The position numbers and the translations under genes are program-made. Below, piece by piece: positions 14,215 to 47,938 of a stretch of DNA of 64,000 nucleotides. How positions within the stretch are numbered: position 1 is the first letter of the stretch; each line of letters starts with the position of its first letter. Source of the DNA: a virus; IMG/VR virus record IMGVR_UViG_3300018080_000112, positions 1 to 64,000 of that record, one strand, 5' to 3'. The notes below the pieces were generated by a model, which was not told the DNA's origin, did no database searches, and saw only the letters and a list, made by a program, of their open reading frames with translations.

Positions 14215-14912
14215 GTGATACGCTCCGAATCAAGAAAGGGTCTCTTTGGGTATAAGAAATATCACGACCTGAAGCAAGCTGAATTACGAGTCCAACAAAT
14301 CTATCCGCGCATTTGTCTTCTCTGTGGGAAACATAATCACACCAAAAATACGGGTCAGAGAATGCATCTCGGTGACTACATCTGTCTGTTTCTGCAAATT
14401 CTTGCACCAGAAGCTTTGTGTGGTTCCATGTGCAATCTGGCGCGTCTGTTTGGCGTAACCCATTCGAGCTAACTGTGAAGGTACTCGGATATCACAGCCG
14501 TCCGGCAACACCACATGAATTTGGGGCAACTGTAACGCATCTGTGGTCACAAACGTTATTTGATGAATTGGGAACGTCATTTCTTTGTCTCCTTGTGTTA
14601 CTCATTTTACCTCTGTGTAATAGAGACACATCAAAGATCAAAACGGAACCAGTAGACAATAAAAAAAGCCGGAGAAGGTTTGTCCTTCCCCGGCTCACTG
14701 CCAACTGGCTCGCTCTAGCCAGTCATCGTAGAGGTGTGTTGTCTGTCAAAACATGAACATTGTTTCCAGGATCTCGCATGCTTCCTTGATGCCGTCGTTG
14801 CATTCGAGATAGGTGCGAAACAATTCCCAGAGAACCAGGAGCACGACAATGACAAGAAGGACCAGCAAAAGCTTCCAGGCTGTTGACCGACTCATCACTT
14901 GCTCCTGTTATT

Positions 14913-15323
14913 TGGAGATGGCGGGATTCGAACCCGCGTCTTGAAACGTCGCTGTAAACGACTCTACGTGTGTAGTCAATCCTTCGTTTCCTTCACCACC
15001 AGAGTCATCAGATTGACAGATTCTCTGGTCAGCTACATCTCATAGTTTAGCCAGCACTAGCGAGATATTCCAGTCGCAGGCGATCTCGTGTATTTTTGCG
15101 TTTCCAGCAAGCCCACAAGCGAACTCACTGGACCCGTGGCGGTCACGCCGCCATTGCCACCGGTTGTTCCACCCGGTAATCCGCCATACTGACGACCTTA
15201 CCAGACGAACGATGTGATTTATTATCGTTGGCAGTTATCAAGTTTTCAGGTTTTTACAGAGCCTCCTGAACCTCTGACACGCATCGGATACCACTCCGCC
15301 CCAATCGATACCAAGTCATCCCC
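14913..15323 (-). ncRNA. ssrA: tmRNA
   Basis: 5' GGGGATG pairs with 3' CATCTCC-A, giving G3-U70. T arm GCGGGTTCGAATCCCGC. Tag frame 15232-15143 follows ATAACT and encodes ANDNKSHRSSGKVVSMADYRVEQPVAMAA*. Confidence 0.92.
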
Positions 15324-17267: not shown

Positions 17268-17377
17268 TAGTGAGGGTAGGATTCGAACCTACATCTGCCG
17301 GTATTTTCACACCCGCCGACTTTCCAATCCGGATCAAGGGGGTCAGCATTACCTGACTCCTTTTAGACCACCTCACC
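17268..17377 (-). tRNA. tRNA-Ser(GGA)-like with an expanded D arm
   Basis: Acceptor GGTGAGG/CCTCACT; T arm GTAGGTTCGAATCCTAC; loop TTGGAAA; long variable arm; extra hairpin in the D arm. Confidence 0.6.
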
Positions 17378-44798: not shown

Positions 44799-45127
44799 CT
44801 CTCCGCCTTTTCGACTACCCCGCTTTCCAGGTCAACCCAACCAATGAATCCATAACGCCATCCCAACCCAGCCGGAGAATCCGGTATGCGACCCGGCGGC
44901 TCTTTGAATGTATTCTGTGAACCTACGGCAAGGAATTGCATATGACCCACGTTGACCGAATCAAGAGCCATATTTTGATATACAGCCCAACGGGTATCTT
45001 CGTGGTTATACGGCGAGGTTTTCATCTCTTCGAGCGTCTCTGGCTCGACCTGTAGCGTCTTCTCTCCCATCTTATTCTCCCCTGTTACTTCGTTGTTATC
45101 TTTTCCTGAACTTCCTCCCCTTGTCAT
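44795..45127 (-). CDS. Hypothetical protein
   Basis: ORF track. Confidence 0.55.
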   Translation of the reverse strand: MTRGGSSGKDNNEVTGENKMGEKTLQVEPETLEEMKTSPYNHEDTRWAVYQNMALDSVNVGHMQFLAVGSQNTFKEPPGRIPDSPAGLGWRYGFIGWVDLESGVVEKAER

Positions 45128-45330
45128 CCAACCACAACACGGGAAGATTCTCCGGACCCTTGTCCTGAATCATCAGGTCATAATCCGCCGCAAGCGTCAT
45201 CACACCCTCCAGAGTCAACTGAAATGTGTAGATAGAATCTTGCTGGACCGCTCGCGGATGTGGTGGTTTATTCCCCATCCAATGACAAACCTGAAATTTC
45301 ACCATGGCTTTTCCTATCTTAGATTCTCAA

Positions 45331-45541
45331 AGTAAATCCCCATGTATATGGGGAATACTCCAACTCGCTGTCAGAGAAGATCTCCTTGACCGGAATATCC
45401 CCATGTATATGGGGAATACAGCCACAACCGTAAAATGGTGCCAAATAAACATGGAATATCCCCATGTATATGGGGAATACGGTCATCAAGGAGACGAGCG
45501 AAATCGAGCTTGCGGAATATCCCCATGTATATGGGGAATAC
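45331..45541 (-). CRISPR. CRISPR array 1: 4 repeats GTATTCCCCATATACATGGGGATATTCC and 3 spacers of 33 nt
   Basis: Repeats at 45331 (degenerate terminal), 45392, 45453, 45514; period 61; type I-E-like palindromic repeat. Confidence 0.95.
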
Positions 45542-45687
45542 TCTTCTTCTGTTCACCACGCTGTTTCGTATTCCTTTACACATGGATTTTACTGCTTCAC
45601 AGGCTATTGCCGTTAACGGTCTTACATAAGCCTCCACAGTCAGAACCGTCATATTCAGCCGGTTATAGAACTTAATACTCATCTTCT
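45542..45687 (-). ncRNA. TnpB reRNA-derived tracr-like RNA, copy 1
   Basis: AACCG-GCTGAATATGA-CGGTT..CTGTGGAGGCTTATGTAAGACC..GCCTGTGAAGCAG resembles IS605 tnpB right-end RNA. It is followed by the anti-repeat CCATGTGTAAAGGAATAC (45568-45585). Confidence 0.8.
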
Positions 45688-46835
45688 AAAACAGTGACGC
45701 CTTTTTGTTTTAAGATAGACGCCGCTTCTTTCCTTATGTTGATTGCTGCATTGATGTCGCGGTCATGTTTTACACGACAACAAGGACAGGTCCAGTTTCG
45801 AACAGAAAGAGGGAGTTTGTCTAACACCTCGCCGCAAACATAACAAGTTTTGCTGGAAGGAAAAAAACGATCAATTTTCACAAGGTGACCGCCGGTTCTC
45901 TGCATCCGCGTCTCAATTCTAGTTCCAAAAGCGCCCCAACTGGCGTCTGCAATCGCCTTTGACAATTTTCTGTTCTTTTGCATGTTCTTTACTTGCAAGG
46001 TTTCCAATCCCACAGCTTGTACGTCTTTCAATGTTGCTGCAATCATCTGGTGTTGATATGTCTCTCGCTTATTTGCAACCTGTGCTTCTCTCTTTGCGAC
46101 AACAATACGAGCCTTTTCTTGGTTTTTTGACCCCTTCTTCTTTCTGGAGTATTTGCGCTTCTTTCGCCGTAAATTATCTTGCGCTTTCTTCAAGAACTTA
46201 GGATTGTCAACCTTCTCTCCCTCAGACGTAATGAACAAGTGAGTCAAACCAAGGTCAAGACCCACAACATCATCAACTTCCGTTAATTTTTTCGGATACT
46301 TCAAACCATCATCAATCAACAGAGACATGTAATACTTAGCTGTAGAAGCTCTTTTTAGTGTACATGTCTTTATCTTTGCGCCGTCTGGAATATTGCGATA
46401 AACATTTGCCTTTACCCATCCGATCTTTGGAATCCAGACCCGTTTATAATCATCTGATACACGAACACCACAAGGATATCCTGCAGACTGACAATGGTTA
46501 CTTTTTTTCTTGAATTTTGGAAAATTGGCGCGTCCTTCAAAGAAGTTAACAAACGCACGATGGAGATTCATAACAGCCTGATTCATCACATCACGCGGCG
46601 CTTTTCGTAGCCACGGATTCTTTTTAATCAAGTCATTCAACCGCCGCATCATGCTATGTGCGTCTACTTTGACCCGCAAACGAATTTTTTCACCCGTGAA
46701 AGGAGATTCTTTATAGATCATCTTTCGCCATGCCAGCATATTATTAAATACCCAGCGTGACACATCAAAATGGTCCTGGAATTTCAATTTTTGTTCCTCT
46801 GTTGGTTTCAGTGGAACTTTGATTCCATACATCAT
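45672..46835 (-). CDS. tnpB: TnpB (IS200/IS605 OrfB) RNA-guided nuclease, CRISPR-associated
   Basis: HTH_OrfB-like N-terminus, FPKFKKK, RuvC triad GLDLGL / GLETL / HDRDINAAINI, and Zn ribbon CYVCG..CPCC. Start MMYG follows GGAGGAG. No tnpA nearby. Confidence 0.95.
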   Translation of the reverse strand: MMYGIKVPLKPTEEQKLKFQDHFDVSRWVFNNMLAWRKMIYKESPFTGEKIRLRVKVDAHSMMRRLNDLIKKNPWLRKAPRDVMNQAVMNLHRAFVNFFEGRANFPKFKKKSNHCQSAGYPCGVRVSDDYKRVWIPKIGWVKANVYRNIPDGAKIKTCTLKRASTAKYYMSLLIDDGLKYPKKLTEVDDVVGLDLGLTHLFITSEGEKVDNPKFLKKAQDNLRRKKRKYSRKKKGSKNQEKARIVVAKREAQVANKRETYQHQMIAATLKDVQAVGLETLQVKNMQKNRKLSKAIADASWGAFGTRIETRMQRTGGHLVKIDRFFPSSKTCYVCGEVLDKLPLSVRNWTCPCCRVKHDRDINAAINIRKEAASILKQKGVTVLEDEY

Positions 46836-46873
46836 AATCTTCGATCTCCTCCGGTTACAAAAGCACATAAAAC

Positions 46874-47084
46874 CTTATATCCCCATGTATATGGGGAATA
46901 CCTCAACCCTTCATCATCTGGGTCAAAGAGTAGGGGAATATCCCCGTGTATATGGGGAATACTCGCCGATTGGCCTGTGTGGTGAAGTCAAGTCGGGAAT
47001 ATCCCCGCGTATATGGGGAATACTTCCTGGTCCACTTTTTGTTCCTCTCGCTGGTCGGAATATCCCCGCGTATATGGGGAATAC
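46874..47084 (-). CRISPR. CRISPR array 2: 4 repeats GTATTCCCCATATAC(GC/AC/AT)GGGGATATTCC and 3 spacers of 33 nt
   Basis: Repeats at 46874 (degenerate), 46935, 46996, 47057. Confidence 0.95.
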
Positions 47085-47230
47085 TCTTCTTCTGTTCACC
47101 ACGCTGTTTCGTATTCCTTTACACACGGATTTTACTGCTTCACAGGCTATTGCCGTTAACGGTCTTATATAAGCCTCCACAGTCAGAACCGTCATATTCA
47201 GCCGGTTATAGAACTTAATACTCATCTTCT
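47085..47230 (-). ncRNA. TnpB reRNA-derived tracr-like RNA, copy 2
   Basis: Direct repeat of 45542-45687 with 2 substitutions; anti-repeat CCGTGTGTAAAGGAATAC. Confidence 0.8.
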
Positions 47231-47938
47231 TAAACGACCACACCAGGTGCAATACTGTTGACCATACTCACCGGGCGCTCGACTCTTGACCCAACTGTGA
47301 AATCGTCCTGGAACAGGATGGTTCGAACACACCTCGTTATCACAAGGGAAAAAATCATCCACTTTTTCAATTCTTTCCTTCCAGGTCCCATCTGGCTGGA
47401 GTTCCTTGAACACACGCTTTCCTGGCTTGCCTTTAGGTTGTTCAATAGATGCCACCACAGCATCCACAATCTCCGCGTCTTCCATAGGTTCCGTATTCTC
47501 AGCCAGACCAGAAAACGGGTCCGTGTCTCTCGACAAACCGCCGGGTCGGAAATCAAGAGGCATCTGCACCTCTGGCGGCTCGCGGTCTCCAAACAACTCT
47601 CGAATAGGAGCCAGGACCTCGTTAATGTGTGGGCGCACCGCATCTTCCGCTTCACGTAGCACTTGACGCGCCATATCTGCAACTTTCAGGTCCTTGTCTC
47701 CCGGCGGAAACTCACCGCGCCGAGAGAGGCGCTTATAAGCCGCAACAATAGGTTCATCACCGGAAGGGTCTTCTGGTACTTCCCACAACGACAAAGGTCT
47801 CTTAGGAGACTCTGGCGGCTCAATTTTGACCTGTTTCGGTCGTATGAAACGCAGATCAAACTCATCTTTGCCTGTAGAGATCTCATTCATCTCCTTCACC
47901 AGGTCTTCAATCAAAGAACCACTTCTGTTCCGACTCAT
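47222..47938 (-). CDS. Hypothetical protein with a C-terminal Cys/His motif
   Basis: ORF track; its stop codon lies inside the duplicated segment. Confidence 0.6.
   Translation of the reverse strand: MSRNRSGSLIEDLVKEMNEISTGKDEFDLRFIRPKQVKIEPPESPKRPLSLWEVPEDPSGDEPIVAAYKRLSRRGEFPPGDKDLKVADMARQVLREAEDAVRPHINEVLAPIRELFGDREPPEVQMPLDFRPGGLSRDTDPFSGLAENTEPMEDAEIVDAVVASIEQPKGKPGKRVFKELQPDGTWKERIEKVDDFFPCDNEVCSNHPVPGRFHSWVKSRAPGEYGQQYCTWCGRLRR

Follow-up and report, generated by a model that had tools for sequence, protein, structure and literature searches.

A phage-borne TnpB locus with two scaffold-array units, probably a TranC-like derivative of a canonical IS200/IS605 TnpB

We describe a block of about 2.15 kb in a phage genome, in which a gene for the transposon nuclease TnpB stands between two copies of a scaffold that resembles a tracrRNA (trans-activating CRISPR RNA), each copy being followed by a short array of repeats and spacers. 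The block lies in the first 64 kb (hereafter the window, positions 1 to 64,000) of the IMG/VR virus record IMGVR_UViG_3300018080_000112, which has a length of 143,941 bp and an estimated completeness of 89%. We consider it likely that this insert is a TranC-like system that was derived from a canonical IS200/IS605 TnpB. The guide RNAs of its closest TnpB relatives, which are at most 47% identical, are unsplit, and the locus would therefore be an independent and young TranC-like intermediate between transposons and CRISPR systems. Systems of this kind have already been published, one phage-borne example included. The present locus adds a lineage that is independent and has repeats of 28 nt, a duplicated unit with matched alleles, and natural recombinants that have lost the nuclease.

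The genes around the cassettes are all on the minus strand, as are all the features with window coordinates below. Read 5′ to 3′ on this strand, the order is the flanking gene P0002, scaffold copy 2 (47085-47235), array 2 (46874-47084), tnpB (45672-46835, 387 amino acids), scaffold copy 1 (45542-45692, overlapping the tnpB stop codon), array 1 (45331-45541) and an open reading frame (ORF) of 69 amino acids. The arrays thus flank tnpB, one lying 38 nt upstream and the other 131 nt downstream of it. The two scaffolds were identified by aligning the copies with each other and by a covariance model, whereas tnpB was identified by matches to domains, to NCBIfam and to homologs of known structure.

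The 151 nt downstream of tnpB are, judging from a comparison with related loci, the conserved multi-stem core of the omegaRNA of this TnpB family. No Rfam family matched the scaffold region at either threshold. Furthermore, a blastn comparison of the scaffold with 160 homolog loci matched the coding part only; the homology to omegaRNA is seen only through structure. Downstream of their genes the closest homologs have a common module of 95 nt, which consists of a nested multi-stem domain, the sequence GAAGCC, a terminal hairpin of 7-8 bp and a tail, AGCAGUCAC, at the transposon end. This structure covaries, with compensatory double changes in 14 of its 25 pairs. We built a covariance model, R1, from 15 of the homolog omegaRNAs, with the phage sequence excluded. 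In the 64-kb window it matches only the two scaffold copies, copy 1 from 45648 to 45534 (43.5 bits, E 3e-10) and copy 2 from 47191 to 47077 (41.6 bits, E 1.1e-9). All the stems of the multi-stem domain are retained in the phage scaffolds, and the outer helix shows compensation, since the phage pairs ACUGU with GCAGU where the relatives pair CCCAU with GUGGG.

The terminal hairpin is where the phage departs from its relatives. Its 21 model positions are swapped for 46 nt that hold an anti-repeat and a linker. In the relatives the outer helix is followed by AAG, a 5′ arm (CCUCGCC), a loop, a 3′ arm (GGCGGGG), a 9-nt tail and then the guide. In the phage it is followed by AAAAU, CCAUGUGUA, AA, GGAAUAC, a 27-nt linker, the repeat and the spacer, and the repeat itself is composed of GUAUUCC, CCA, UAUACAUGG and GGAUAUUCC. 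In this order of parts the anti-repeat stands where the relatives have the 5′ arm of their terminal hairpin. By the same correspondence the repeat is the 3′ arm of the hairpin plus the 9-nt tail, with the spacer in the guide position. Instead of a single omegaRNA that finishes at the right end of a transposon, the locus has the core, no ...AGUCAC end, and repeats in its stead. In silico the omegaRNA is split into a tracrRNA, which carries the anti-repeat, and a CRISPR RNA (crRNA), the two being joined by helices of 9-10 bp and 7 bp between anti-repeat and repeat.

The closest relatives show no such split. The loci L171 (47% identity) and L172 (45% identity) both have an unsplit omegaRNA, of 95 and 74 bits respectively, with a terminal hairpin and a ...UCAC end, and on the contig of another close relative a Y1 transposase lies beside the gene. 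An array beside tnpB was found in just one of the 160 homolog loci, L020, where the repeat sequence is unrelated. With the closest relatives unsplit, the repeat absent elsewhere from IMG/VR and the JGI metagenome contigs, the repeat of L020 unrelated, and one TnpB without TnpA or Cas1 in the phage, we conclude that the split took place locally and independently, in a TnpB clade that is ordinary in other respects.

The L020 locus (IMGVR_UViG_3300010281_000249) encodes a viral TnpB of 372 amino acids that is 37% identical to the phage protein. Four repeats of ~38 nt, with spacers of ~34 nt, lie directly upstream of its gene (L020:1950-2450) and a normal omegaRNA module lies downstream (L020:3635-3714, 19.8 bits). 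An omegaRNA-like hairpin remnant (13.4 bits) can be seen ~190 nt before the array. The locus may have a relative in clade 9 of the TranCs, a phage clade with 38-bp repeats that a 2026 preprint describes.

The protein encoded by tnpB matches PF12323 (HTH_OrfB), PF01385 (OrfB_IS605, RuvC) and PF07282 (zinc-ribbon TNB), all above the Pfam cut-offs. It scores 281 bits with the NCBIfam TnpB subfamily model NF040570 (cut-off 100) and aligns over its full length with the ISDra2 TnpB (E ~1e-48). The RuvC triad (D194, E278 and D360) and the zinc ribbon (C331/C334/C350/C353) fall in invariant columns, the phage protein included, and the triad and the CxxC...CxxC pattern line up with the ISDra2 catalytic motifs. 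These alignments identify the protein as a predicted full-length TnpB with intact catalytic residues. It does not have the C-terminal tail that its relatives encode in the omegaRNA region; the phage ORF ends ~24 nt before the omegaRNA module, whereas that of the relatives runs into it. Among 5.8 billion proteins the best relative is 47% identical, and no close relative of the nuclease was found in IMG/VR. The scores against the Cas12f2 and C2c8 models are 38.6 and 79.4 bits, with cut-offs of 450 and 350, and the protein thus matches neither Cas12 subtype. The match to LaTranC (PDB 9jfq) is confined to residues 258-389, i.e. the C-terminal ~130 residues (E 1.7e-29). In the 144-kb record PF07282 matches once only and no Y1 TnpA (PF01797) was found, so that the record offers neither the TnpA nor the multiple copies that make up a transposon context.

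A first-pass annotation of this DNA had described a duplicated cassette, and the alignment of the minus strand agrees with it: the two segments of 146 nt, 45542-45687 and 47085-47230, differ at exactly two positions, and both contain GAAGATGAGTATTAA, with the last tnpB codons. At the first of these positions (site A, 45625/47168) copy 1 has a G and copy 2 an A, and at the second (site B, 45583/47126), which is inside the anti-repeat, copy 1 has an A and copy 2 a G. The homology extends to 45513-45692 and 47056-47235, i.e. to 180 nt with five differences, two of which are in repeat 1. It begins ~20 nt inside the 3′ end of tnpB, consequently copy 2 opens with a remnant of the last codons (20 nt, 47216-47235) that has no gene before it.

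Both arrays consist of four 28-nt repeats and three 33-nt spacers with a repeat period of exactly 61 nt. As had been noted, the spacers of the two arrays are mutually different, all six being unique. The repeat cores are also as first read, ACATGG in all four repeats of array 1 (the ATGG type) and, from the scaffold outward, ACGCGG, ACGCGG, ACACGG and ACATGG in array 2. The 3′ end of the distal-most repeat is degenerate in both arrays. In array 1 the last repeat forms a hairpin (45337-45354) with a T-rich tract behind it, and this site has the score of an intrinsic-terminator-like element; it could end the array transcript.

The first-pass annotation had named an assembly artefact at the duplication as something that would refute its reading. 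We found the two-copy structure, with the same alleles, in three independent assemblies, and it is not an artefact. The ENA contig L009 has the same arrangement and alleles with one mismatch in 3284 nt, the JGI contig L176 has the same two-copy arrangement and alleles, and Logan contigs of the run X1 span the region from tnpB to array 2 with the same structure. The sole difference between the window and L009 is one base at 46745, inside tnpB. Logan contigs of the runs X1 and X3 also carry a C-to-T difference at 47126, which is located on a short collapsed-repeat contig; we took this for the assembler's choice of allele and rejected it as a variant.

Anti-repeat 1 (AAUCCAUGUGUAAAGGAAUAC, 45568-45588) was said to match the repeats of its array. 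It does pair with them, with the correction that CCAUGUGUA and UAUACAUGG do not form nine Watson-Crick pairs, one of the pairs being a G-U wobble. A second helix of 7 bp, GGAAUAC with GUAUUCC, lengthens the duplex. The partner of the U at repeat position 17 is base 3 of CCAUGUGUA. The three repeats of array 2 that are closest to the scaffold carry C17 instead, and opposite it, at 47126, anti-repeat 2 (AAUCCGUGUGUAAAGGAAUAC, 47111-47131) has a G, so a U-A pair has become a C-G pair. The two most proximal of these repeats have also changed A16 to G, which keeps a G-U pair, and the distal repeat of array 2, still of the ATGG type, pairs with anti-repeat 2 through a G-U. With the A-to-G change of anti-repeat 2 matching the U-to-C change of the repeats, the best pairing partner of either scaffold is its own array.

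The computed duplex energies follow this pattern. In the same register they are -22.0 kcal/mol for tracr 1 with ATGG, -21.6 for tracr 2 with ATGG, -23.4 for tracr 2 with ACGG and -23.0 for tracr 2 with GCGG. Tracr 1 reaches only -19.5 kcal/mol with ACGG and -19.1 with GCGG, a loss of 3-4 kcal/mol, and does so in a shifted register. The hairpin that the repeat forms on its own is weakened from -10.5 to -8.6. Because the cognate duplex is kept while the repeat hairpin weakens, the changes preserve the intermolecular and not the intramolecular pairing. In the minimum free energy structures from RNAfold the anti-repeat of copy 1 is paired with repeat 1, and in copy 2 the repeat's own hairpin is preferred, thus single-sequence folding is not decisive. 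The case for the duplex, as a prediction, stands on position and homology and not on energy. It is reasonable to read it as a functional tracr:repeat duplex. The first-pass annotation had spoken of covariation in support of this function. The tracr-like, omegaRNA-derived scaffold and the A-to-G change that restores a Watson-Crick pair speak for that claim, which we would limit to one event.

The whole block is absent from relatives of the phage. Three related phages (L179, L180 and L181), with a nucleotide identity of 66-79% in the flanking genes, have a homolog of P0002 that is followed within 30-80 nt by a homolog of the gene at ~45070, and at this syntenic site they have nothing of what lies between 47236 and ~45090. 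In L179 and L180 the P0002 homologs end just past TGGTGTGGT, and the left junction comes immediately behind this sequence, where the duplicated segment has its first bases. As the syntenic site is empty in the relatives, we regard the whole ~2.15-kb block as an accessory insert, with the 69-aa ORF as a part of it. This ORF (45096-45305) comes directly after array 1, has no family match, and might be cargo or else assist the TnpB system as an accessory factor. On the other side, the flanking phage gene P0002 (47222-47938, 238 amino acids, no family match) has its stop codon and last four codons inside the duplicated segment. The intergenic region that takes the place of the insert in L179 contains TCAACAGCCTTGA (L179:2130-2145).

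The stretch occurs in eight runs of six studies, from sediment in 2018 and seawater in 2021. Contigs of the runs X2 and X4 join 45583 straight to 47127, and in this joined form P0002 is followed by one scaffold and array 1, without tnpB and without array 2. The junctions differ between the two joined contigs L177 and L178. Both have an A at site A and ATGG in repeat 1, and at site B there is an A in L178 and a G in L177 (ENA, k141). The simplest reading is that recurrent homologous recombination between the direct copies loops out a unit of 1543 nt. It is also possible that the joined forms arose by the reverse event, integration of the unit, or by a point change at site B. As these natural deletion variants show, the arrangement is unstable.

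The terminal hairpin of an omegaRNA has thus been opened, its 5′ arm being the anti-repeat, and its 3′ arm with the 9-nt tail being the 28-nt repeat. For the working of the locus we propose the following. Repeat 1 would fold back in cis over the 27-nt linker, resulting in a natural single-guide RNA, and the later repeat-spacer units would pair with the scaffold in trans, in the fashion of a tracrRNA and its crRNAs. Guides paired with the scaffold would load TnpB, which would cut matching DNA beside a transposon-associated motif (TAM); competing phages or other mobile DNA are the likely target. The scaffold-array unit is duplicated, with one copy upstream and one downstream of tnpB and the alleles matched within each pair, and the direct copies would recombine to give variants without tnpB and array 2. 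A bolder version, which we find possible but doubtful, sees here a CRISPR-like system at its birth, among the youngest such cases that can be observed, with an array made inside a phage from the hairpin that ends a still canonical IS200/IS605 omegaRNA, growth by an integrase borrowed from the host, two tracr/array pairs that drift towards incompatibility after the duplication, and a nuclease gene that is repeatedly looped out from between them.

The first-pass annotation proposed that the arrays grew from the scaffold-proximal end. The nested series of ATGG, ACGG, GCGG and GCGG fits this order, as do the degenerate distal repeats, while the polarity itself is unproven. Taken with the 61-nt period and the unique spacers, both features would fit an integrase-type ruler at the scaffold-proximal repeat. 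The exact period and the unique spacers suggest that a host-supplied machine of the integrase type added the spacers. Since the oldest spacers are not common to the arrays, probably no more than the scaffold and a single repeat was copied in the duplication, or else old spacers have been lost.

Several observations weigh against a TranC-like system at this locus. Taken alone, the duplex energy only ranks among the best 1.2% when set against shuffles and among the best 2.8% when set against genome windows, and the matched base change is a single covariation event. Site A is the G of a GUAA loop in 14 of the 15 homolog omegaRNAs and in copy 1, and its change to A may weaken copy 2 (47168). No RNA run is among those that contain the stretch. 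No protospacers were found for the spacers in the scans made: a BLAST search of both arrays against GenBank phages returned chance matches only, the phage's own genome has no second match to a spacer at the nucleotide or peptide level, and the 22-nt seeds of S1.1, S1.2, S2.1 and S2.2, the four spacers taken into the seed scans, have no exact match in IMG/VR, nor has the S1.1 seed in the JGI metagenomes. The arrays are static, being identical to the window wherever contigs cover them, from the 2018 sediment to the 2021 seawater. Furthermore, the 144-kb record has no match to cas1 (PF01867) and so offers no adaptation module. Many miniature and phage-borne systems likewise lack one. With no cas1, no protospacers and no spacer turnover across the covering contigs of the runs, the earlier claim of spacer acquisition continuing after the duplication is unsupported. 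Finally, the natural variants without tnpB imply that the system is dispensable, or that the orphan cassette does something else. The positive evidence for such forms is the joined contigs themselves; that X4 has no contig covering tnpB is a contig gap only.

Some of these observations would also be expected if the locus were a decaying or neutral relic, in which selection on an RNA duplex had no part in the duplication, in the variation of the repeats or in the matched change. We think this unlikely. The one matched change could be due to chance, or to template-switch repair in the quasi-palindrome that anti-repeat and repeat 1 form at a distance of 27 nt, and switching at the DNA level could indeed yield such a change without selection; a long template switch, however, would have corrected the G-U at repeat position 13, which is left as it was, and we estimate the chance that one of two substitutions in ~150 nt is the single one that restores this pair at about 0.004-0.009. 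The direct repeats are recombinogenic and tnpB has been lost repeatedly, and at site A a conserved nucleotide of copy 2 is altered, but the tnpB that is present is intact with all its catalytic residues, and the copies have diverged at just 2 of 146 positions, one of which restores pairing. Static arrays without known targets would suit a relic as well, and yet all four repeats of array 2 are compatible with anti-repeat 2, whereas three of the four mismatch anti-repeat 1.

The weakest alternative, to which we give very little credence, makes the arrays a host-type mini-CRISPR (class 1, I-E-like) that exploits the Cas proteins of the host, with the 146-nt segment as its leader and TnpB beside it by accident: the 28-nt repeat, 33-nt spacers, 61-nt period, CCCC...GGGG hairpin and 8-9-nt handle, which we take to resemble type I-E, would be in keeping with it, as would distal repeats that are degenerate as in leader-polarised arrays, natural forms in which the scaffold and array 1 remain without tnpB, and a phage without cas1, but what would be the leader is an omegaRNA core conserved in the TnpB family, the anti-repeat coincides exactly with the 5′ arm of the terminal hairpin in its position, a compensatory change has no reason in a leader, and a search of IMG/VR and the JGI metagenome contigs with the repeat pattern of 25 bases gave no exact match elsewhere.

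Elsewhere in the window the phage has a full-length tmRNA gene (14912-15323, 133 bits), and also a 110-nt gene that is tRNA-like (17268-17377), whose score of 33 bits is slightly over the cut-off.

If the TranC-like reading is correct, the locus shows the splitting of a guide RNA while almost everything else has stayed as it was: the protein is not expanded, a model of ordinary transposon relatives still recognises the omegaRNA core, and the nearest relatives are unsplit. Since nature provides a pair of anti-repeat and repeat alleles, a simple exchange between them could show how important the duplex is. The locus could also help address how a phage array without adaptation genes gains spacers of exactly 33 nt. 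Furthermore, a compact nuclease of 387 amino acids with a short two-part guide may interest tool developers.

With canonical IS200/IS605 TnpBs of the ISDra2 type (PDB 8h1j and 8bf8) the phage locus shares its protein domains, its catalytic residues and an omegaRNA core at the 3′ end of the gene. It differs from them in that there is no Y1 TnpA, only a single copy, and no right end of the ...AGUCAC type. In addition, the phage has an open terminal hairpin, the 3′ half of which has been multiplied to form the arrays, and the ORF stops short of the omegaRNA module. Cas12f and Cas12n offer another comparison. Like them, the phage system combines a RuvC domain and a zinc ribbon with a predicted tracr:crRNA duplex, and its crRNAs would have a repeat-derived 5′ handle and a 3′ spacer. 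In contrast to them, the phage TnpB falls far under the Cas12f2 and C2c8 cut-offs, has no expanded REC or WED domains, and is not accompanied by cas1, cas2 or cas4.

The closest parallel is TranC. These transposon-CRISPR intermediates (Jin et al. 2025, Cell 188:6283, as cited in PMC13565253 and PMC13639567) were described in 2025, according to those citing papers, as the step at which the guide RNA of a transposon splits into a tracrRNA and a crRNA, and a phage-borne example, CauTranC9, has been presented since (bioRxiv 10.64898/2026.03.27.714800). As in TranC, a TnpB-like effector adjoins a CRISPR array, in this case two arrays of four repeats each. Both have an effector of the size of TnpB with no domain expansion, an omegaRNA or reRNA that is split into tracrRNA and crRNA (the phage RNAs being predicted), a tracr with the effector on one side and a short array (3-5 repeats) on the other, no adjacent adaptation genes, and an occurrence in phages. 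CauTranC9 and the phage TnpB are also alike in having no C-terminal tail of the ISDra2 type. The repeats of TranC clades 3, 9, 11 and 20 measure 32-38 nt, whereas those of the phage measure 28 nt, and LaTranC matches the phage TnpB in its C-terminal part only, whereas the ISDra2 TnpB matches it over the full length. Unlike TranC, the phage locus has canonical transposon TnpBs with an unsplit omegaRNA as its nearest relatives, and it carries its tracr-array unit in duplicate, with anti-repeat and repeat alleles that are diverging from one copy to the other.

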